Shown here: piece by piece, positions 1 through 35,163 of the stretch | Numbering within the stretch: the first letter of the stretch is position 1 | How the letters are laid out: every line of letters starts with the position of its first letter | Assembly (NCBI RefSeq): GCF_003334305.1 | Contig: NZ_QOWS01000033.1 | Length of the DNA: 35,452 nt | Source of the DNA: Escherichia coli | GTDB lineage: Bacteria > Pseudomonadota > Gammaproteobacteria > Enterobacterales > Enterobacteriaceae | Strand: one strand, 5' to 3' | Made by a program: the position numbers and the translations under genes | Notes under the pieces: generated by a model | The model's input: only the letters and a program-made list of their open reading frames with translations | Databases searched by the model: none | What the model was told of the DNA's origin: nothing

Positions 1-2
1 TT

Positions 3-497
3 GGTTTAGGAGAAGGCTCTGCATTACCGGTTGGGGTGCCTGTTCCGTGGCCTTCAGCCACTCCGCCAACAGGCTGGCTGAAATGCAATGGTGCGGCTTT
101 TTCTGCTGAAGAATACCCGGAACTGGCAAAGGCTTACCCGACCAATAAATTGCCTGATTTACGTGGTGAGTTTATTCGTGGCTGGGATGATGAACGTGGT
201 GTGGATAGTGGGCGAACTCTGCTTTCATCGCAAGGAGATGCTATTCGAAACATTACTGGCGGTTTTGGTCAGTTGCGCGTAAACAGCGAAATTAATGCAA
301 TTGTCGATGTTCAAAGTGTGAGTGGGGCTTTTTACGGAGGTACCTCAGTCCGGAATAACATCAATGTGTCTATGACATACGCTAATGACCGAAAAATCCG
401 ACAAGATGTTCACTTCTCGGCGGCAAATGTTGTTCCAACAGCAAATGAAAATCGTCCACGTAACATCGCCTTTAATTATATTGTGAGGGCCGCATGA
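3..497 (+). CDS. Tail fibre protein, C-terminal variable part (5'-truncated by window edge; constant part lies upstream)
   Basis: Frame is open from position 3; the translation (GLGEGSALPVGVPVPW...GWLKCNGAAFSAEEYPEL...) resembles phage tail-fibre tips; the stop overlaps the start of the next gene (ATGA at 494-497). Confidence 0.65.
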   Translation, partial: GLGEGSALPVGVPVPWPSATPPTGWLKCNGAAFSAEEYPELAKAYPTNKLPDLRGEFIRGWDDERGVDSGRTLLSSQGDAIRNITGGFGQLRVNSEINAIVDVQSVSGAFYGGTSVRNNINVSMTYANDRKIRQDVHFSAANVVPTANENRPRNIAFNYIVRAA

Positions 498-1102
498 TGA
501 ATAAAGCTGTATTAAATAGCAAACTCATTGCCATAAAAGCGGGAGACATTATCATTTATAATTATGATGGTGAAACGCGGGAATATATTTCTACATCAAC
601 TGAATATCTCGCTGTCGGCGTCGGTATCCCGGCATGTTCTTGTTTAGATGCTCCGGGCTCAAACAAAGCTGGTTATGCAATTTGTCGTTCTGTAGATTTA
701 AACTCATGGGAATATGTGCCAGACCATCGCGGTGAAGTTGTCTATAGTACCGAAACGGGAGATACCAAAGAAATCACAGCTCCGGGTGATTACCCTGAAA
801 ATACAACCATTATCGCCCCATTAACGCCATACGATAAATGGGATGGTGAGAAATGGGTGACCGATACTGAGGCACAGCATAGCGCCGCAGTAGACGCGGC
901 AGAAGCACAGCGTCAGTCACTGATTGATGCTGCAATGGCTTCCATCAGTCTGATTCAGCTGAAATTACAGGCCGGACGGAAGTTGATGCAGGCAGAAACA
1001 ACCCGGCTTAACGCCGTGCTGGATTACATTGACGCGGTGACGGCAACAGATACCAGCACCGCGCCTGATATTATTTGGCCTGTATTCCCTGAGACTGATT
1101 AA
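494..1102 (+). CDS. Tail fibre assembly chaperone (Tfa / P2 G-like)
   Basis: 202-aa ORF immediately after the tail-fibre gene with start/stop overlap; position and size fit a tail fibre assembly protein. Confidence 0.65.
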   Translation: MMNKAVLNSKLIAIKAGDIIIYNYDGETREYISTSTEYLAVGVGIPACSCLDAPGSNKAGYAICRSVDLNSWEYVPDHRGEVVYSTETGDTKEITAPGDYPENTTIIAPLTPYDKWDGEKWVTDTEAQHSAAVDAAEAQRQSLIDAAMASISLIQLKLQAGRKLMQAETTRLNAVLDYIDAVTATDTSTAPDIIWPVFPETD

Positions 1103-1292
1103 CCTCAATTAGTATTGGTTCGCCTTTCTCATTAATTGTTAGCTCCATGCCCTGAGGAATTTCTGTCATAGTAAAAAACCAGTTGTCCTCCGGTAATTCA
1201 ATAGCCCCGGTCACGTCATGAAGACCGGGGATTACTTCAGTCAAAGTAACTGGATTAAACAGGCGCACAATAAACCCTCCAGGAAAAAGCAT
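1071..1292 (-). CDS. Alternative (inverted-orientation) short tail fibre assembly protein
   Basis: Minus-strand ORF convergent with the plus-strand assembly gene, downstream of the minus-strand fibre cassette; start placed at an internal Met; arrangement mirrors Mu G-segment / e14 cassettes. Confidence 0.35.
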   Translation of the reverse strand: MLFPGGFIVRLFNPVTLTEVIPGLHDVTGAIELPEDNWFFTMTEIPQGMELTINEKGEPILIEVNQSQGIQAK

Positions 1293-1596
1293 TTGATGAT
1301 GGTCTGCCGTCGTACATCTGGCAGCGGGCATAAAAGCCGGTATTTGTTACCTGATCATCCACGATCATTGAAACATGAACATTATTAGGTGTGCTCTCGT
1401 AATCCGTTCTTATTCTTTCCGCGATACTGATAAAACGTGAAAGTTTAGGCAGTGCAATTGGGTAAACAACTTTAGCCAGTCCATTATCATTAGATCCACC
1501 GGTTCCAAATACTTCTATTGCACCGTCTGACCAGCGTATCCATGCACCATTGGCATTAGCTCCTCGCTGAATGACATATCTGGCTTCTCCCAAACC
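1255..1596 (-). CDS. Alternative tail-fibre C-terminal cassette, promoterless, expressed only after inversion
   Basis: Minus-strand frame encodes ...VGLGEARYVIQRGANANGAWIRW...; the VGLGE junction matches the GLGE junction at the window start; the Met codons at 1638 lie outside the inverted repeat and are probably incidental. Confidence 0.5.
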   Translation of the reverse strand, partial: GLGEARYVIQRGANANGAWIRWSDGAIEVFGTGGSNDNGLAKVVYPIALPKLSRFISIAERIRTDYESTPNNVHVSMIVDDQVTNTGFYARCQMYDGRPSSNAFSWRVYCAPV

Positions 1597-1610
1597 AACG
1601 TTTAAGAAAA
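1585..1610. repeat. Invertase crossover site (hix/gix-like), right end of invertible segment; partner half-site at 1-14
   Basis: 1585-1598 TTCTCCCAAACCAA is the reverse complement of window positions 1-14 (TTGGTTTAGGAGAA) with one mismatch; 1585-1610 has the form TTCTCCCAAACC-AA-CGTTTAAGAAAA, resembling the 12-2-12 Hin/Gin crossover sites. Confidence 0.55.
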
Positions 1611-1659
1611 TGCAGAGGTAACAGCTAACTGGCATCATCTCCGGTTTTTATTCAGGGGG

Positions 1660-2232
1660 ATGATCATGCTTATTGGCTATGTACGCGTGTCAACAAATGA
1701 CCAGAACACCGATTTGCAACGTAATGCACTGAACTGCGCGGGATGTGAGCAGATTTTTGAGGACAAAATCAGTGGCACTAAGTCCGACAGACCGGGGCTG
1801 AAAAAACTACTCAGGACACTATCGGCAGGAGACACGCTGGTTGTCTGGAAGCTGGACAGGTTGGGGCGCAGTATGCGGCATCTTGTTACGCTGATAGAAG
1901 AGTTGCGCCAGCGTGGTGTGAATTTCAGAAGCCTGACTGACAGTATTGATACCAGTACCCCAATGGGTCGTTTCTTTTTTCATGTCATGGGTGCCCTGGC
2001 TGAAATGGAACGCGAACTGATAGTTGAACGTACCAGGGCAGGGCTGGCTGCAGCTCGTGCCAAAGGCAGAGTAGGTGGACGCCGTCCTAAGTTGACCACC
2101 GAACAGTGGGCACAGATTGGGCGTTTACTCGAGGCCGGAGAATCAAGACAGCGTATTGCACTGATTTTTGATGTAGGCGTTTCTACCATTTATAGAAAAT
2201 TTCCGGCAAATAAGATCAATGAATCCCCCTGA
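1660..2232 (+). CDS. Serine DNA invertase (Pin/Gin/Hin/Cin family)
   Basis: N-terminus IGYVRVSTNDQ with the catalytic Ser context, a resolvase-type catalytic domain and a C-terminal HTH (GVSTIYRKF); lies directly beside the right crossover site. Confidence 0.85.
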   Translation: MIMLIGYVRVSTNDQNTDLQRNALNCAGCEQIFEDKISGTKSDRPGLKKLLRTLSAGDTLVVWKLDRLGRSMRHLVTLIEELRQRGVNFRSLTDSIDTSTPMGRFFFHVMGALAEMERELIVERTRAGLAAARAKGRVGGRRPKLTTEQWAQIGRLLEAGESRQRIALIFDVGVSTIYRKFPANKINESP

Positions 2233-4563: not shown

Positions 4564-7500
4564 TAACAACCTGCGTCTGCAGGTCATTCTTAATGCGGTT
4601 GACAAGCTCACCCGCCCATTTCGATCTGCGCAGGCCAGTTCAAGAGAACTGGCTGCTGCTGTCAAAAAATCCCGCGATGCAATAAAGCAGCTTGATCAGG
4701 CCGGGAGCAGTCTGGACAGCTTCCGAAAGCTGCAGGCAGAAAATCAGAAATTAGGCGACAGGCTGAACTATGCCCGCCAGCGTGCAAATTTGCTCAGTCA
4801 GGAACTGGGAGCGATGGGGCCGCCTTCGCAACGTCAGGTTGTTGCTCTGGGCCGTCAACGGCTGGCTGTTCAGCGCCTGGAAGAACGCCAGAAAAAGCTG
4901 CAGCAGCAGACGGCGCTTGTGCGTGCTGAACTGTACCGGGCGGGAATTTCTGCGAAAGACGATGCGGGAGCAACTGCCCGTTTAGCCCGTGAAACATCAC
5001 GTTATAACCAGGAACTTTCGAAACAGGAGGCGCGGCTGAAGCGACTGGGGGAAGCTCAGCGCAGGATGAATGCAGCGCGTGCCAGTTATGCCCGTTCGCT
5101 GGAGGTGCGTGATCGTATTGCAGGTGCCGGAGCCACCACCACGGCTGCAGGGCTGGCAATGGGTGCGCCAGTGATGGCGGCAGTAAAAAGCTATACCAGC
5201 ATGGAAGATGCCATGAAAGGTGTGGCAAAGCAGGTCAATGGTCTGCGTGACGATAATGGCAACCGCACTGCACGTTTTTATGAAATGCAGGATGCCATCA
5301 AGGCTGCCAGCGAACAGTTGCCGATGGAAAACGGTGCGGTGGACTTCGCTGCACTGGTTGAAGGTGGTGCGCGCATGAACGTCGCAAACCCTGACGACAG
5401 CTGGGAAGATCAGAAACGTGACCTGCTGGCCTTCGCCAGTACGGCAGCAAAGGCGGCAACAGCCTTTGAGCTGCCAGCGGATGAACTGTCAGAAAGTCTG
5501 GGGAAAATCGCCCAGCTCTACAAAATCCCCACCCGCAATATTGAACAGCTCGGTGATGCGCTGAACTATCTGGATGATAACGCCATGTCGAAAGGGGCAG
5601 ACATCATTGATGTGATGCAACGTCTGGGCGGTGTGGCTGACCGTCTGGATTATCGTAAAGCGGCGGCGCTGGGTTCCACCTTCCTGACACTGGGCGCTGC
5701 GCCGGAGGTTGCAGCCAGTGCAGCAAACGCGATGGTGCGTGAATTGTCCATTGCCACCATGCAAAGCAAGAGTTTCTTTGAAGGGATGAATCTGCTGAAA
5801 CTCAATCCTGAAGTGATTGAAAAGCAGATGACGAAGGATGCGATGGGAACCATCCAGCGCGTGCTGGAGAAGGTAAACGCGCTGCCGCAGGACAAGCGCC
5901 TGTCTGCCATGACTATGTTGTTTGGTAAAGAGTTTGGCGATGACGCGGCGAAACTGGCAAACAACCTGCCGGAACTGCAGCGTCAGTTAAAACTGACAGC
6001 GGGCAATGATGCGCTTGGCTCCATGCAGAAAGAATCCGACATTAACAAGGATTCACTTTCTGCGCAGTGGTTGCTGGTCAAAACCGGAGCGCAGAACACC
6101 TTCAGCAGCCTGGGCGAAACGCTGCGCCAGCCGCTGATGGATATTCTGTACACGGTGAAAAGCGTCACGGGGGCGTTGCGTCGCTGGGTGGAAGCTAACC
6201 CGGAACTGACAGGCACACTGATGAAAGCATCGGCTGTTGTGGCTGCGGTTACCGTCGGCCTCGGCACCTTAGCGGTGGCGCTGGCTGCAGTGCTGGGGCC
6301 GCTGGCAGTGATCCGTCTGGGATTCTCTGTGTTGGGTATCAAAACGTTATCTTCCGTTACGGCAGCAGTAACTCGAACCAGCAGCGCGTTGTCCTGGCTG
6401 GCTGGCGCACCACTGGCACTGCTGCGACGCGGGCTTGCTTCATCGGGCAACGCCGCAGGTTTACTTACTGCGCCGTTGTCGTCTTTGCGCCGCACGGCAT
6501 CACTGACGGGAAATGTCCTGAAAACTGTAGCAGGTGCGCCGGTTGCACTTTTGCGGTCTGGATTATCCGGTTTACGTGCGGTTGCTGTGATGTTTATGAA
6601 TCCACTGGCAGCACTACGCGGCGGGCTGGCTGCCGCAGGCACGGTGCTGCGAGTACTGGCATCTGGTCCACTGGCGATGTTGCGCGTTGCCCTGTATGCC
6701 GTATCTGGTCTGTTAGGTGCTCTGCTCAGTCCGATAGGTCTTGTGGTTACTGCACTGGCGGGTGTGGCACTGGTTGTCTGGAAATACTGGCAACCCATCA
6801 CCGCATTTCTCGGTGGCGTGGTGGAAGGATTCAAAGCGGCGGCAGGTCCCATCAGTGCAGCGTTCGAACCGCTTAAGCCTGTGTTCCAGTGGATTGGTGA
6901 CAAAGTGCAGGCGCTGTGGGGCTGGTTTACTGATCTGCTGACGCCCGTTAAGTCGACTTCTGCCGAACTGCAGAGCGCAGCGGCAATGGGGCGACGATTC
7001 GGGGAGGCACTGGCGGAAGGGCTGAATATGGTCATGCATCCGCTGGACTCCCTGAAATCCGGCGTTTCCTGGTTGCTGGAGAAGCTCGGCATTATCAGTA
7101 AAGAGGCCGCAAAGGCAAAACTGCCGGAAAGCGTGACGCGTCAGCAACCTGCGACGGTGAATGCAGACGGTAAAGTGATGATGCCATCGGGTGGTTTTCC
7201 GTCATGGGGATATGGCTTTGCGGGGATGTATGACAGCGGCGGCTATATCCCGCGCGGGCAGTTTGGCATCGTCGGTGAAAACGGGCCGGAAATTGTTAAC
7301 GGCCCGGCAAATGTGACCAGCCGGAGAAATACAGCTGCACTGGCTGCCGTTGTTGCCGGAATGATGGGCGTTGCTGCCGCGCCTGCAGAGCTTCCACCGT
7401 TGCACCCTTTGGCACTTCCCGCGAAAGGCGGCGAAGCGATGGTGAGTCGTGCAGCCACTGTGCCGCCCGTTCAACGGATTGAGGCACCGATGCAGATCAT

Positions 7501-9302: not shown

Positions 9303-9521
9303 ATGATGATTTGCCCACTGTGTGGAAGTGCCGCCCATACTCGCAGCAGTTTTCAGGTATCTTCATTGACCAAAGAGCGTTACAACCAGTGCCAGAACAT
9401 TAACTGCAGCCATACTTTTGTTACCCATGAAACTTTTGTTCGTTCGATTGCAACGCCAAAAGAGTCAAATCCGGTTCAGCCGCATCCTCATAAATTTAAA
9501 CAGGTGGGTTTGCCGATTTAA
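9303..9521 (+). CDS. ogr: Ogr/Delta-type zinc-finger late transcription activator
   Basis: CPLCGSAAHTRSS...YNQCQNINCSHTF is a C4 zinc-finger pattern like P2 Ogr; start placed at the Met preceding CPLC, with a GGGAGA Shine-Dalgarno upstream. Confidence 0.75.
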   Translation: MMICPLCGSAAHTRSSFQVSSLTKERYNQCQNINCSHTFVTHETFVRSIATPKESNPVQPHPHKFKQVGLPI

Positions 9522-9585
9522 ATGGCGACATAACTACATGATTTAAAACTATACTTTTCTATAAGTTGAGGTTAAATTAACAATG

Positions 9586-9762
9586 CCTGACGTTAGCGGG
9601 GATTTATCCCCACTCCGTAGATATGTAGTTTGTCGCTTTGCGACTGCGGACCGATTACCTGATTGCCATGTAATCGGACGCCGACTTGTTAAGCTTTCTG
9701 GGCTAACTGGTTGTTATTTTTTATTTAGTTAGGGCCATGCGCTTGCGCTAAGAGACGTCAGG
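9586..9762 (+). ncRNA. Candidate structured non-coding RNA upstream of the reverse transcriptase (retron msr/msd-like or DRT-type ncRNA)
   Basis: Long-range inverted repeat CCTGACGTTAGCG (9586-9598) with CGCTA-AGAG-ACGTCAGG (9746-9762) enclosing hairpins at 9598-9611, 9632-9644 and 9651-9677; no convincing ORF inside. Confidence 0.4.
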
Positions 9763-9782
9763 TATCTATGGAGGAACAAGTT

Positions 9783-9956
9783 ATGGATACAAACGAACTT
9801 GGCTTAGTTAAGGCGCGTGTTGAACTGATCACCGCTATGCTCAAATGCGCAACCGCGTTTGTTGGCTTAGTTGGTGCGGTTTACGCCGTTCTTAACATGG
9901 CCTTCAACTACAACAATTTAACTCATGACAATAGAAGTTCAAAGGTGGGAAGATAA
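9783..9956 (+). CDS. Small hypothetical protein with one hydrophobic helix (possible small effector, or frameshifted RT N-terminus)
   Basis: Only open frame across 9768-9956; GGAGGA Shine-Dalgarno about 7 nt before the ATG at 9783; hydrophobic stretch AFVGLVGAVYAVLNMAF; overlaps the RT start by about 30 nt in another frame. Confidence 0.3.
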   Translation: MDTNELGLVKARVELITAMLKCATAFVGLVGAVYAVLNMAFNYNNLTHDNRSSKVGR

Positions 9957-10698
9957 ATTTGAGATTAAGCCCGGGGTTTGGGTTTATGTCCCAAGCGTTG
10001 AGGCACGTAAAGTCGGAGGGAAGATACTTCAGGCTGTCAGAAACAAGTGGATTCCGCCACTCTATTTTTACCATCTAAGAACTGGTGGGCATCTTAAAGC
10101 TGCCAGATTACACTTAAAAAGTGATTTTTTTGCCGTTGTTGATATTAAACAATTTTTTCAGTCAACGAGCCGTAGTCGTATCACCCGTGATCTAAAGAGC
10201 TACTTCACCTATTCTCAAGCGCGGGAAATCTCAACATTTTCAACTGTAAGAAACTTGTCCCATAGTCCACATAAGCATGTCCTCCCTTTTGGTTTTGTTC
10301 AATCTCCAATACTTGCAACCCTCTGCTTAGATAAAAGTTATTTTGGTAGCTTACTACGCCGATTGAACAAACATCATGATCTCAAGCTAAGTGTGTTTAT
10401 GGATGATGTGATCATCTCGTCAAACGATTTGGCCCAATTACAAGCGGCTTACGACGAAGCACTAGTGGCAATGCGTAAATCTGGTTATCAAGCCAACATG
10501 AGTAAAACTCAGGCACCATCGTCAAAGATTAGCGTGTTTAATTTAACTTTGAGTAAGGGAGTTATGAAAGTCACATCTCAGAAAATGAGTGACTTCCTGA
10601 TTGATTTCTATTCAAGCAATTATGAGCCGCACAGAATAGGGGTCAAAAACTACGTCGAAGCTGTTAATCCAGGGCAAGCGAAACTCTTTAAGTTGTAA
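9925..10698 (+). CDS. Compact reverse transcriptase (retron/Abi/DRT-like RT domain)
   Basis: RT motifs readable in the translation: fingers FEIKPGVWVYVPS, motif A VVDIKQFFQS, motif B LPFGFVQSPILATLCL, catalytic YxDD box FMDD; AT-rich with rare codons (AGA, ATA, CTA). Confidence 0.75.
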   Translation: MTIEVQRWEDKFEIKPGVWVYVPSVEARKVGGKILQAVRNKWIPPLYFYHLRTGGHLKAARLHLKSDFFAVVDIKQFFQSTSRSRITRDLKSYFTYSQAREISTFSTVRNLSHSPHKHVLPFGFVQSPILATLCLDKSYFGSLLRRLNKHHDLKLSVFMDDVIISSNDLAQLQAAYDEALVAMRKSGYQANMSKTQAPSSKISVFNLTLSKGVMKVTSQKMSDFLIDFYSSNYEPHRIGVKNYVEAVNPGQAKLFKL

Positions 10699-10806: not shown

Positions 10807-11169
10807 TGGTGGAGCTGGCGGGAGTTGAACCCGCGTCCGAAATTCCTACATCCTCGGTACTACATGCTTAGTCAGTCTTTACATTCGCTTGCCAGCTGCG
10901 GACGGACACGCCACTAACAAACTAGCCTGATTAAGTTTTAACGCTTCAACCCCAGGCAGGGCTTCCACGCGATCTCTTTTGGGTTTGACCTCTCTTGATC
11001 CCCGTCCTAAGAGCGGAGGCTAGGGAGAGAGGGCTCTAAGCAGGTTATTAAGCTGCTAAAGCGTAGTTTTCGTCGTTTGCGACTATTTTTTGCGGCTTTT
11101 TACGAGGCCAACCGCCCCTCGGCATGCACCTTGGGTTTCGCAAATCCCGTCGAATCCAGAATCAGCCCC
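10807..11169 (-). ncRNA. ssrA: tmRNA (SsrA)
   Basis: Reverse complement matches E. coli tmRNA from GGGGCTGATTCTGG (5' end at 11169) to GCTCCACCA (3' end at 10807), including the tag-coding region. Confidence 0.95.
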
Positions 11170-29039: not shown

Positions 29040-29075
29040 ATAAAAAAGGCCCCCCGATTTGGGAGGCCTTATTGT
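29040..29075 (-). terminator. pheA attenuator terminator hairpin
   Basis: On the minus strand GGCCTCCC-AAATC-GGGGGGCC followed by a T-run, between pheL and pheA. Confidence 0.6.
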
Positions 29076-29116
29076 TCGTCTTCGCATTCTGTTTCACACG
29101 ACGAAACGCCTCCCAT

Positions 29117-29164
29117 TCAGGGGAAGGTAAAAAAGAATGCGAAGAAAAACGGTGTGTGTTTCAT
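29117..29164 (-). CDS. pheL: pheA leader peptide, 15 aa, Phe-rich ([15 protein letters not shown])
   Basis: Direct translation of the reverse complement gives seven Phe codons in 15. Confidence 0.85.
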   Translation of the reverse strand: [15 protein letters not shown]

Positions 29165-29267
29165 GTTTGTTTCCTTAAGTGACTTTAGTACAGTACCCGT
29201 ACTGTTTTCACGCTGTCAACAAAAAACGCGCCCGAAGGCGCGTTGGCGATACACTCAATATAAAGGA

Positions 29268-32460: not shown

Positions 32461-32522
32461 CCTAAAGAATCAAGACGATCCGGTACGCGTGATTTTCTTT
32501 TCACATTAATCTGGTCAATAAC

Positions 32523-32550
32523 CTTGAATAATTGAGGGATGACCTCATTT
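32523..32550 (+). promoter_or_regulatory. Sigma-32 heat-shock promoter of clpB
   Basis: CTTGAA (32523-32528), 14-nt spacer, CCTCATTT (32543-32550), resembling the sigma-32 -35/-10 consensus. Confidence 0.5.
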
Positions 32551-32589
32551 AATCTCCAGTAGCAACTTTGATCCGTTATGGGAGGAGTT

Positions 32590-35163
32590 ATGCGTCTGGA
32601 TCGTCTTACTAATAAATTCCAGCTTGCTCTTGCCGATGCCCAATCACTTGCACTCGGGCACGACAACCAATTTATCGAACCACTTCATTTAATGAGCGCC
32701 CTGCTGAATCAGGAAGGGGGTTCGGTTAGTCCTTTATTAACATCCGCTGGCATCAATGCTGGCCAGTTGCGCACAGATATCAATCAGGCATTAAATCGTT
32801 TACCGCAGGTTGAAGGTACTGGTGGTGATGTCCAGCCATCACAGGATCTGGTGCGCGTTCTTAATCTTTGCGACAAGCTGGCGCAAAAACGTGGTGATAA
32901 CTTTATCTCGTCAGAACTGTTCGTTCTGGCGGCACTTGAGTCTCGCGGCACGCTGGCCGACATCCTGAAAGCAGCAGGGGCGACCACCGCCAACATTACT
33001 CAAGCGATTGAACAAATGCGTGGAGGTGAAAGCGTGAACGATCAAGGTGCTGAAGACCAACGTCAGGCTTTGAAAAAATATACCATCGACCTTACCGAAC
33101 GAGCCGAACAGGGCAAACTCGATCCGGTGATTGGTCGTGATGAAGAAATTCGCCGTACCATTCAGGTGCTGCAACGTCGTACTAAAAATAACCCGGTACT
33201 GATTGGTGAACCCGGCGTCGGTAAAACTGCCATCGTTGAAGGTCTGGCGCAGCGTATTATCAACGGCGAAGTGCCGGAAGGATTGAAAGGCCGCCGCGTA
33301 CTGGCGCTGGATATGGGCGCGCTGGTGGCTGGGGCGAAATATCGCGGTGAGTTTGAAGAACGTTTAAAAGGCGTGCTTAACGATCTTGCCAAACAGGAAG
33401 GCAACGTCATCCTGTTTATCGACGAATTACATACCATGGTCGGCGCGGGTAAAGCCGATGGCGCAATGGACGCCGGAAACATGCTGAAACCGGCGCTGGC
33501 GCGTGGTGAATTGCACTGCGTAGGTGCCACGACGCTTGACGAATATCGCCAGTACATTGAAAAAGATGCTGCGCTGGAACGTCGTTTCCAGAAAGTGTTT
33601 GTTGCCGAGCCTTCCGTTGAAGATACCATTGCGATTCTGCGTGGCCTGAAAGAACGTTACGAATTGCACCACCATGTGCAAATTACTGACCCGGCAATTG
33701 TTGCAGCGGCGACGTTGTCTCATCGCTACATTGCTGACCGTCAGCTGCCGGATAAAGCCATCGACCTGATCGATGAAGCAGCATCCAGCATTCGTATGCA
33801 GATTGACTCAAAACCAGAAGAACTCGACCGACTCGATCGTCGTATCATCCAGCTCAAACTGGAACAACAGGCGTTAATGAAAGAGTCTGATGAAGCCAGT
33901 AAAAAACGCCTGGATATGCTCAACGAAGAACTGAGCGACAAAGAACGTCAGTACTCCGAGTTAGAAGAAGAGTGGAAAGCAGAGAAGGCATCGCTTTCTG
34001 GTACGCAGACCATTAAAGCGGAACTGGAACAGGCGAAAATCGCTATTGAACAGGCTCGCCGTGTGGGGGACCTGGCGCGGATGTCTGAACTGCAATACGG
34101 CAAAATCCCGGAACTGGAAAAGCAACTGGAAGCCGCAACGCAGCTCGAAGGCAAAACTATGCGTCTGTTGCGTAATAAAGTGACCGATGCCGAAATTGCT
34201 GAAGTGCTGGCGCGTTGGACGGGGATTCCGGTTTCTCGCATGATGGAAAGCGAGCGCGAAAAACTGCTGCGTATGGAACAAGAACTGCACCATCGCGTCA
34301 TTGGTCAGAACGAAGCGGTTGATGCGGTATCTAACGCTATTCGCCGTAGCCGTGCGGGGTTGGCGGATCCAAATCGCCCGATTGGTTCATTCCTGTTCCT
34401 CGGCCCAACGGGTGTGGGGAAAACTGAGCTTTGTAAGGCGCTGGCGAACTTTATGTTTGATAGCGACGAGGCGATGGTCCGTATCGATATGTCCGAGTTT
34501 ATGGAGAAACACTCGGTGTCTCGTCTGGTTGGTGCGCCTCCGGGATATGTCGGTTATGAAGAAGGTGGCTACCTGACCGAAGCTGTGCGTCGTCGTCCGT
34601 ATTCCGTCATCCTGCTGGATGAAGTGGAAAAAGCGCATCCGGATGTCTTCAACATTCTGTTGCAGGTACTGGATGATGGTCGTCTGACTGACGGGCAGGG
34701 GAGAACGGTCGACTTCCGTAATACGGTTGTCATTATGACCTCTAACCTCGGTTCCGATTTGATTCAGGAACGCTTCGGTGAACTGGATTATGCGCACATG
34801 AAAGAGCTGGTGCTCGGTGTGGTAAGCCATAACTTCCGTCCGGAATTCATTAACCGTATTGATGAAGTGGTGGTCTTCCATCCGCTGGGTGAACAGCACA
34901 TTGCCTCGATTGCGCAGATTCAGTTGAAACGTCTGTACAAACGTCTGGAAGAACGTGGTTATGAAATCCACATTTCTGACGAGGCGCTGAAACTGCTGAG
35001 CGAGAACGGTTACGATCCAGTCTATGGTGCACGTCCTTTGAAACGTGCTATCCAGCAGCAGATCGAAAACCCGCTGGCACAGCAAATACTGTCTGGTGAA
35101 TTGGTTCCGGGTAAAGTGATTCGCCTGGAAGTTAATGAAGACCGGATTGTCGCCGTCCAGTAA
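32590..35163 (+). CDS. clpB: Disaggregase chaperone ClpB (Hsp100)
   Basis: 857 aa from [10 protein letters not shown]; two AAA+ modules with Walker A motifs ([16 protein letters not shown]) and a middle coiled coil. Confidence 0.95.

Follow-up and report, generated by a model that had tools for sequence, protein, structure and literature searches.

A tail-fibre locus with the layout of a Pin/Gin/Hin-type inversion switch in a P2-like prophage of Escherichia coli

Genes and Features of the Locus

The window (the whole stretch of 35,452 nucleotides that was analysed) has its source in the chromosome of E. coli A7 (NZ_CP028767.1, locus L001), and it opens within tail-fibre gene H, on the first of the two central bases of the left crossover site. 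By the annotation of the source genome, the host element is a P2-like prophage integrated at, or abutting, ssrA, and its late genes run in the Peduoviridae-type order V-W-J-I-H-G … FI-FII-E-E'-T-U-D-ogr. The fibre has a P2-type N-terminus (Pfam Phage_tail_fib), Tail_P2_I is also matched by Pfam at the prophage, and the tail and lysis region appears complete. The motif TGT-N12-ACA (Ogr box), sought 5' of the sheath gene, shows no enrichment within the window. The element is a P2-like, Fels-2-type prophage of E. coli, and Fels-2 is integrated at ssrA as well. The features at the fibre locus are listed here by window position unless L001 is given.

L001 5989-6000, immediately left of the window: left crossover site, outer half TTCTCACATACC, recovered from the source genome
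1-14, no strand: left crossover site, inner part, made up of the core TT (1-2) and the inner half-site GGTTTAGGAGAA
1-497, plus strand: variable C-terminal part of the expressed fibre H (…LGLGE-GSALPVG…, Collar domain), stop codon at 495-497
497-1102, plus strand: tail fibre assembly protein Tfa (tfaE in the annotation) that pairs with the expressed collar tip; matches phrog_105 (tail fiber assembly, 3e-96), Caudo_TAP_N and Caudo_TAP
1071-1268, minus strand: 65-aa ORF, placed where the silent cassette would have its tfa gene, its start overlapping the stop of the alternative tip
1255-1598, minus strand: silent alternative tip of 113 aa (GLGE-ARYVIQRG…CAPV-stop), promoterless in the window orientation
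1585-1610, no strand: right crossover site TTCTCCCAAACC-AA-CGTTTAAGAAAA, core AA at 1597-1598
1666-2232, plus strand: Pin/Gin-family serine DNA invertase of 188 aa, catalytic Ser9 in MLIGYVRVSTNDQ
1688-1750, no strand: candidate recombinational enhancer inside the invertase gene, with Fis-like 15-mers TGTCAACAAATGACC (1688-1702) and GCGCGGGATGTGAGC (1736-1750)

The segment between the sites consists of two convergent cassettes, each a fibre tip with its accessory gene; the constant N-terminus of the fibre lies outside, and both fusions are in frame. The constant part comprises 349 codons (L001 4953-6000, left of the window), and fibre H matches Phage_tail_fib at residues 1-150, Collar at 361-408 and the tail protein profile phrog_327 (1.5e-214). 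The silent tip has a weak match to Gp53-like_C (E=0.14), matches phrog_2557 at 2e-15 and shares 61% identity with the C-terminal end of a Xenorhabdus fibre of 455 aa. The two tips (Collar versus Gp53-like) are unrelated in sequence, and both cassettes are genuine fibre C-termini, present on full-length fibres elsewhere. An earlier note on this DNA, made from the sequence alone, had placed an alternative tip on the minus strand, facing the plus-strand pair. That reading stands; its spelling of the junction as VGLGE holds only in the unfused ORF, since the residue at the fusion is L (…YLGLGE…). The annotated ORF of 126/127 aa for this tip, reaching 1635/1638, is an artefactual extension.

Crossover Sites and Invertase

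The two 26-bp sites are both laid out as 12-2-12, are inverted relative to each other and have the same core dinucleotide (TT/AA). Positions 1-14 (TTGGTTTAGGAGAA) and the reverse complement of 1585-1598 (TTGGTTTGGGAGAA) are, as had been claimed, copies one base apart; the single mismatch of the arm repeats is A versus G at position 8, which is variable in the consensus. The 14-nt arm has two matches in the window and no others, against 0.02 expected from shuffles. The Hin/Gin layout proposed for 1585-1610 is borne out by its match to the 26-bp consensus TTCTCNNAAACCNNGGTTTNNGAGAA, the single one in the window at three or fewer mismatches, where the chance expectation is none; the same scan recovered exactly the known gix (Mu) and pix (e14) pairs. 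The left site has this layout too. Reassembled as TTCTCACATACC-TT-GGTTTAGGAGAA (L001 5989-6014), it agrees with the consensus at 19 of the 20 specified positions. The earlier note had named a left half-site that failed to complete a symmetric site as a ground for refuting the switch, and the recovered flank, which does complete it, answers this objection in favour of the switch. Comparison with pix and gix, two of the sites whose alignment the note had suggested as a check, puts the right site a single base away from the pix site of e14 and reveals a half-site consensus shared with gix. No third crossover site, as in a multi-inversion, shufflon-like locus, was found in site scans of the window and the locus. 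The right site starts 81 bp 5' of the invertase ATG, a distance fixed in almost all of 80 related IMG/VR loci, and the same site pair flanks very diverse cassettes in 60 of these 80 related viral contigs.

The invertase shares 87% identity with PinE and 76% with Gin, and it matches the Gin structure (PDB 3UJ3) at 3e-93, its Ser9 aligning with the mutated S9A position of that structure. Pfam assigns Resolvase to residues 3-135 (4e-53) and HTH_7 to residues 138-181 (3e-15), and the protein matches the DNA invertase profile phrog_125 (5e-101). Its assignment to the Pin/Gin family was therefore correct in the earlier note; the start placed 50 bp past the site (1660) was not, as homology to Gin and PinE puts the ATG at 1666 (MLIGYVRVS...), 55 bp past the site. 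The ORF is intact and 98%–100% identical to its counterparts in dozens of relatives. A simple sigma-70 scan detected no promoter for the gene and no excess of sigma-70-like sites.

The candidate enhancer is a motif-level prediction. Against the degenerate Fis consensus GNNYRNNWNNYRNNC, the 15-mer at 1688-1702 agrees at six of seven specified positions and lacks the consensus 5' G, and that at 1736-1750 agrees at all seven. Their centres are 48 bp apart, the spacing of enhancer Fis sites, and the first centre lies ~97 bp from that of the right site. In alignments with pinE of e14 and gin of Mu, both 15-mers keep the positions of the motif in matching columns. Synonymous diversity in the invertase gene is lowest at codons 1–15 and 26–35, and the 5' ends of genes often score low for other reasons. 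The placement of the two 15-mers agrees with the geometry of the Hin enhancer (PMC3798978). Inversion systems of the Din family (Hin/Gin/Cin/Pin) need Fis and negative supercoiling, produce inversions and no deletions, and have their enhancer ~100 bp from the adjacent crossover site. Taken as predicted sites, they are consistent with a recombinational enhancer, and we infer that inversion would depend on Fis.

The Small Protein of the Silent Cassette

The earlier note had called the product of the 65-aa ORF a short alternative assembly protein. It has no detectable homology to Tfa/Caudo_TAP proteins, and that label rested on position. Searches of Pfam, NCBIfam and PADLOC-independent searches returned no match, and its AlphaFold model (pLDDT 74, pTM 0.35) resembles no PDB entry significantly, the top Foldseek hit being to WW domains at an E-value of 0.7. 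The ORF instead belongs to a family of conserved, uncharacterised small proteins of 57–91 aa: 123 homologues were found down to ~60% identity, nearly all within this length range, and conservation spans genera, with the position after the same tip type kept in Xenorhabdus. The idea of a truncated Tfa arises because the ORF matches positions 1–66 alone of the 145-position profile phrog_5400. We reject it, as the homologues are nearly all short and the Tfa of phage 500465-1 (147 aa) is not similar to the ORF; agreement with Tfa 3' ends is limited to the last few codons, where the ORF overlaps the convergent tfa gene.

Both Orientations in Related Genomes

When the segment is flipped in silico at the core, the reading frame is kept and the resulting fibre has 463 aa (...LGLGE|ARYV...). 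Exactly this predicted fusion is encoded on 12 public contigs; among the matches listed (6), five have the flipped gene order, three of these with the invertase. A near-identical prophage in E. coli OkiPb01678 is flipped and contains both predicted junctions, at 100% and 99.8% identity (left GGTTTG, right …CCTAAACC). There the A/G marker of the inner half-sites has moved between the sites and the outer half-sites are unchanged, which confines the exchange to the 7 bp TTGGTTT that contain the core. The breakpoint is thus resolved to 7 bp rather than to 2 bp, and strand exchange at the core itself is judged by comparative evidence. The chromosomes of two chicken isolates, DG342-2 and DG341-1, are both 5,067,659 bp long; the flanks are 100% identical, and a clean inversion of the segment is what distinguishes the two. 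Among complete genomes the two orientations are roughly balanced (42 versus 34). The swap of the fibre C-terminus at the GLGE junction that the earlier note had predicted is thus found in relatives, in both orientations and with the fused protein present verbatim.

Several draft contigs end at the crossover sites, so assemblers evidently struggle at this locus, and one might ask if the database orientations are assembly errors or the product of RecA-dependent recombination between short inverted repeats. We give this next to no weight. Both orientations occur in closed, complete genomes; the identical arms are 15 bp only, too short for efficient RecA recombination; and the breakpoints coincide with a Hin/Gin-type site adjoining a dedicated invertase. 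Inversion has also been verified at homologous e14 and P2-like loci, by PCR for e14 (PMC4272514, PMC12529663), the two orientations co-existing in e14 and in EPEC P2-like prophages with PCR support for the former (PMC4272514).

A second reading accepts the architecture and denies it any present activity: in A7 the segment would no longer invert, with the invertase unexpressed or the asymmetry of the sites impairing synapsis, and the alternative cassette would be a silent fossil. The outcome of the promoter scan 5' of the invertase and the lack of a canonical Tfa in the silent cassette would fit such a relic. It is nonetheless improbable, given an invertase that is intact and nearly invariant among relatives, the exchange of the same A/G site pair in OkiPb01678, the 12 contigs with the exact flipped A7-type fibre, the clonal DG isolates that differ in orientation and a small ORF conserved across genera. 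From these relatives we infer that the segment probably also flips in the A7 lysogen itself.

Proposed Mechanism and Function

The locus is very likely a site-specific inversion switch of the Pin/Gin/Hin type (Din family) in the tail-fibre region of an ssrA-integrated P2-like prophage. Dimers of the 188-aa serine invertase would bind the two 26-bp sites, the left one inside gene H at the LGLGE codons and the right one non-coding, 55–81 bp 5' of the invertase ATG. The enzyme would then cut the central TT/AA dinucleotide and invert the ~1.6-kb segment by subunit rotation, probably with help from Fis at the candidate enhancer, which falls within the first ~90 bp of the gene for the enzyme. In the window orientation the 349-residue shaft ends in the Collar-domain tip and is followed by the canonical Tfa chaperone; in the flipped orientation it ends in the 113-residue Gp53-like tip and is followed by the 65-aa accessory protein. 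Expression would be limited to the cassette that faces the late operon, so that a population of lysogens could release virions with two receptor specificities. As the tips are unrelated in sequence, different receptor specificities are likely, and the swap probably changes host range. The flipped state might assemble its fibres less well, since its cassette has no recognisable Tfa.

The small ORF may offer another view of that cassette. We tentatively suggest, and would not be surprised to be wrong, that it represents a family of minimal fibre accessory proteins or chaperones with ~55 conserved residues, unrelated to Caudo_TAP Tfa, always located after Gp53-like tips with a stop overlap, and present in P2-like phages and tailocins across the Enterobacterales. 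If so, the two orientations would differ in the mechanism by which the fibre matures as well as in the receptor-binding tip.

A role on the host side has a precedent in e14, where inversion of the P segment at the same inverted repeats, by PinQ or PinE, yields StfE2, a chimera that inhibits T2 adsorption (PMC12529663). By analogy, the A7 switch would flip and the fibre-derived protein of one orientation would block adsorption of other phages, with virion host range not its main role. We consider this quite unlikely, slightly more so than a relic: the prophage appears complete in its tail and lysis region, its fibre gene is part of a late operon, which lysogens normally do not express, both cassettes encode true fibre C-termini known from full-length fibres, and the silent tip in the window orientation has no stfE-like N-terminal partner. 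Such a role would in any case be compatible with a host-range function.

If the locus is such a switch, the fibre gene and the silent tip, now annotated as a "hypothetical protein", together make up one phase-variable gene, each being half of it, and assemblies may break or differ here with no real difference between strains. It would be a further case of host-range bet-hedging at the conserved LGLGE junction, which doubles as a point of cassette exchange: in related loci many different tips lie behind the same sites and invertase.

Comparison with Known Systems

The earlier note was right that switches of this kind are known from Mu (G), P1 (C) and e14 (P); the Min system of p15B is of the same type. 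The note also called such a switch absent from canonical P2; among P2-like prophages it is not unusual, as Fels-2, EPEC P2-like prophages, phage 500465-1 and hundreds of IMG/VR contigs carry it; a P2-like prophage switch of this type is already known and ordinary. Just the conserved 65-aa partner of the Gp53-like tip is possibly a new element of the locus. The closest phage record is Escherichia phage 500465-1 (Wadgaonvirus, Peduoviridae), with 94% identity over 75% of the query. It shares the gene order, an annotated DNA invertase and the site pair, and differs in its own unrelated silent cassette, a 131-aa tip with a 147-aa Caudo_TAP Tfa that has no similarity to the alternative tip or the 65-aa ORF of the window.

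Compared by description, fin of Fels-2 (Salmonella) and the EPEC E2348/69 loci likewise have an invertase and an invertible fibre C-terminus between G/tfa and the sheath gene, and the Fels-2 fibre gene beside fin inverts (PMC7953296). Again by description, the cassette contents differ, and one of the EPEC loci can take four arrangements with its three repeats, versus two sites and two states here.

The G segment of Mu, with its gix sites and sis enhancer, resembles the A7 locus in its invertase (Gin, 76% identical, 3UJ3 match 3e-93), its 26-bp sites with a common half-site consensus and the alignment columns of the candidate Fis 15-mers, and the logic is that of S/U versus S'/U'. Unlike the A7 sites, with their AA/TT core, gix has a GA/TC core; the G segment is ~3 kb, both Mu cassettes contain a canonical Tfa, and Mu is a transposable myovirus rather than P2-like.

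The e14 P segment of E. coli K-12 is similar in several respects. PinE is 87% identical to the A7 invertase, a single base separates the right site from the right pix site of e14, and the inner arm in the window is identical to the e14 inverted repeat (the experimentally used repeats are TTGGTTTGGGAGAAGG and CCTTCTCCCAAACCAA; PMC12529663). The order is also the same, with a constant stf part, convergent tip and tfa cassettes and then pin, and fusion occurs at the same LGLGE junction. In contrast to e14, which is lambdoid, defective and truncated in its fibre gene, the A7 prophage has a fibre H of P2 type that is full-length, and its P2-like tail operon appears complete; where e14 has TfaP or TfaE, the alternative cassette here has the 65-aa non-Tfa ORF.

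Source of the Window and Its Gene Setting

Over its first 2.7 kb the window matches the chromosome of E. coli A7 (NZ_CP028767.1, reverse strand) at 100% identity. RefSeq annotates the matching A7 stretch (3,560,000–3,596,100) as the arm of a P2-like prophage, a reverse-transcriptase gene, ssrA, and host genes up to clpB; the prophage arm carries part of the fibre gene H, tfa, two "hypothetical" ORFs, a recombinase, sheath, tube, tape measure, U, D, and ogr. The window therefore starts inside H. We took a left flank of 6 kb from A7 (locus L001, whose position 6001 corresponds to window position 1). Rfam searches at the gathering threshold found the following; the prophage attachment site is marked by the tmRNA gene.

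RNA features in the window (Rfam, gathering threshold)
10807–11169 (-), tmRNA (ssrA)
29040–29165 (-), pheA leader
32471–32609 (+), RyfD sRNA

Between ogr (9303–9521) and the prophage end at ssrA lies a candidate retron moron (9583–10698, +).

Parts of the candidate retron
Part 1: structured intergenic region of ~180 nt, closing inverted repeat ATGCCTGACGT / ACGTCAGGTAT, MFE -67.7 kcal/mol, z = -3.3
Part 2: 9783–9956 (+), hydrophobic ORF, 57 aa
Part 3: 9925–10698 (+), reverse transcriptase, 257 aa

The best matches of its reverse transcriptase are PADLOC RT_VI (6.6e-18) and NCBIfam retron_St85_RT (3.5e-13, far under its cut-off); an Rfam search of the candidate gave no match. A TGT-N12-ACA dyad (TGTGTGAATAACGACACA, 2281–2298, +) lies 77 bp ahead of the ATG of the sheath gene and is similar to the Ogr/Delta activator box found in P2 late promoters; across the window this pattern is no commoner than chance (8 found, 9 expected).

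Crossover Sites and Invertase

As the earlier note had it, positions 1–14 (TTGGTTTAGGAGAA) and the reverse complement of 1585–1598 (TTGGTTTGGGAGAA) differ at one base; no further match of this kind occurs in the 35 kb, where 0.02 are expected. The right site (1585–1610), proposed to be of Hin/Gin type, is the single window match to the 26-bp consensus at three or fewer mismatches (0 of 100 shuffles matched). The same scoring scan of Mu and e14 recovered their known gix and pix pairs and nothing else, and aligning the sites with these places the right site one base away from that of e14 (TTCTCCCAAACCAACGTTTATGAAAA). The first base of the left core is window position 1, and the outer half beyond the window edge, which the earlier note had marked for checking, was recovered from the A7 flank as TTCTCACATACC, giving a full site.

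Complete crossover sites
Left: TTCTCACATACC / TT / GGTTTAGGAGAA
Right: TTCTCCCAAACC / AA / CGTTTAAGAAAA

Together they make up the region's longest inverted repeat, and their cores are reverse complements, the condition that inversion requires.

The neighboring gene is a Pin/Gin-family invertase, as had been claimed: its 188-aa product shares 87% identity with PinE and 76% with Gin, carries Resolvase and HTH_7 domains, and matches solved Gin structures at 3e-93, with Ser9 aligned to the S9A position of 3UJ3. When the product is aligned with Gin and PinE, its start shifts from 1660 to the ATG at 1666 (ORF 1666–2232). Its 5' part contains two candidate Fis sites, scored against a degenerate consensus (GNNYRNNWNNYRNNC) that reportedly goes back to Hübner and Arber in 1989 and Finkel and Johnson in 1992.

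Candidate Fis 15-mers
1688–1702, TGTCAACAAATGACC, 6 of 7 specified consensus positions
1736–1750, GCGCGGGATGTGAGC, 7 of 7 specified consensus positions

The 15-mers are 48 bp apart centre to centre, the first centred ~97 bp from the right-site centre, with ATTTG and TAATG between them. In the Hin enhancer, two 15-bp Fis sites lie ~100 bp from hixL, and the DNA between them contains the AT-rich segments ATTTA and TAATG (PMC3798978). In alignments with e14 pinE and Mu gin, the motif-defining bases of both 15-mers are conserved column for column; several unspecified positions of the second differ. Synonymous codon diversity among 63 distinct invertase genes is lowest in codons 1–15 (0.08–0.15) and 26–35 (0.13), against ~0.2–0.4 elsewhere, a dip to be read with the caveat that these sequences are related and that the 5' ends of genes are also under other constraints. 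These patterns are consistent with a candidate enhancer embedded in the 5' part of the gene.

Alternative Fibre Tips

The full expressed H protein has 514 aa (Phage_tail_fib 1–150, Collar domain 361–408). On the plus strand the remainder of H is followed by a canonical Tfa (phrog_105, 3e-96; Caudo_TAP). The minus strand carries a 113-aa tip that begins GLGEARYV and matches phrog_2557 and, weakly, Gp53-like_C (E=0.14), followed by a 65-aa ORF whose GTG start overlaps the stop codon of the tip. Flipping L001 6001–7598 in silico yields an in-frame 463-aa fibre (…LTYLGLGE/ARYVIQRG…), bearing out the proposed swap of the fibre C-terminus at GLGE.

RefSeq lists the silent tip (1255–1638, -) as a separate "hypothetical protein" of 126 aa (WP_097344035.1). 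The first ~13 residues of this protein derive from the crossover site and non-coding DNA, and it is really a promoterless C-terminal cassette of a phase-variable fibre gene.

Both Orientations Occur in Nature

We built both junctions expected from core inversion and searched them against complete E. coli genomes. Strain OkiPb01678 has both flipped junctions, each in a single piece (100% and 99.8% identity). Its alignment with A7 runs through flank (98.97% identity), inverted segment (99.875%), and flank (98.6%). An A/G marker distinguishes the inner half-sites: left GGTTTAGGAGAA and right TTCTCCCAAACC in A7, left GGTTTGGGAGAA and right TTCTCCTAAACC in OkiPb01678. The marker has moved while the outer halves are the same; therefore the exchange took place inside TTGGTTT, which includes the core dinucleotide. 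Four chicken isolates share a chromosome length of exactly 5,067,659 bp: DG342-2, DG343-1, and DG351-2 have the window orientation, and DG341-1 is flipped. Between DG342-2 and DG341-1 the segment is cleanly inverted between 100% identical flanks (2,015 and 1,802 nt). This second natural experiment points the same way.

The 463-aa fusion with the constant part of A7 itself occurs verbatim on 12 public contigs (NCBI, JGI, ENA, Logan). Five of the six such contigs shown have the predicted order (fibre, 65-aa ORF, convergent Caudo_TAP and Collar tip); three of these five also include the invertase, and the other two stop just before it. On the sixth (L094), the 65-aa ORF is followed by unrelated non-phage genes. 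The two orientations are about equally common among complete genomes: the window arrangement is covered to 80% or more in 42, and the flipped left junction is covered in 34. Near-identical prophages thus occur in both orientations, and the switch is almost certainly active.

Like the window, several independent draft or viral contigs begin or end at the sites or a few bases from them (L030, site at 1–14; L048, 7–32; L049, 2–27; L095 and L096, at their 3' ends). The pattern suggests a tendency of assemblies to break at such switches, possibly through coexistence of both orientations in the reads.

Cassette Exchange

Part of the switch region is matched by 2,951 E. coli records, and an IMG/VR scan found at least 600 relatives of the invertase, from which 80 loci (L009–L088) were kept. 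The right site begins 81 bp upstream of the invertase ATG in almost all 80, and in 60 a TT-core site is followed by an AA-core site 1.1–4.1 kb downstream. Cassettes are highly diverse, both tips differing from the window's two in 45 of these 60 loci, and the window's tip types are found in expressed as well as silent slots of related loci. The exact 514-aa ON-state fibre of A7 also stands beside other silent cassettes (L097, L099, L100), which consist of a 147-aa Caudo_TAP Tfa and other Gp53-like tips. Judging from these loci, cassettes are evidently swapped freely while the invertase and site pair in front of them stay conserved; the LGLGE junction is thus both crossover site and cassette-exchange boundary.

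A Conserved Small Protein

Homologues of the 65-aa ORF (1071–1268, -), down to ~60% identity, extend across Enterobacterales, with members in Enterobacter, Salmonella, Citrobacter, Hafnia, Xenorhabdus, and Erwinia. Almost all have 57–91 aa with a common core of ~55 residues, and on that ground its reading as a Tfa fragment was rejected. Pfam and NCBIfam searches gave no match; an AlphaFold model (pLDDT 74) is a small beta structure with no significant neighbour in a PDB search. Family members are consistently downstream of Gp53-like fibre tips. In Xenorhabdus khoisanae the homologue overlaps and directly follows a 455-aa P2-type fibre, whose last 107 residues share 61% identity with the alternative tip of the window. 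Of the earlier description as a "short alternative assembly protein", the place after the tip is conserved, but the protein is no fragment of Tfa; from that position we infer that it may be an assembly or accessory factor. This conserved partner of the Gp53-like tip is the only modestly new item here.

Comparison with Known Switches

The element is a typical Pin-type tail-fibre inversion switch. It agrees with the Din family of invertases in its enzyme, its inverted site pair, and exchange at the core as judged from genome comparisons, and with the fibre-switch class of Mu G, P1 C, and e14 P in its convergent, in-frame cassettes. The earlier note had remarked that canonical P2 lacks such a switch; none is known from the canonical P2 map, but switches are common among P2 relatives. 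Phage 500465-1 (Peduoviridae) has the same layout as the window, with a DNA invertase annotated. In Fels-2, the fibre gene adjoining fin inverts (PMC7953296). Orientations coexist by read-mapping in e14 and two P2-like prophages of EPEC E2348/69, and PCR confirmation of inversion has been described for e14 (PMC4272514). PinE and PinQ use inverted repeats in e14, TTGGTTTGGGAGAAGG / CCTTCTCCCAAACCAA (PMC12529663), whose sequence is the same as that of the window switch arms. Such a switch is already known, including in P2-like prophages.
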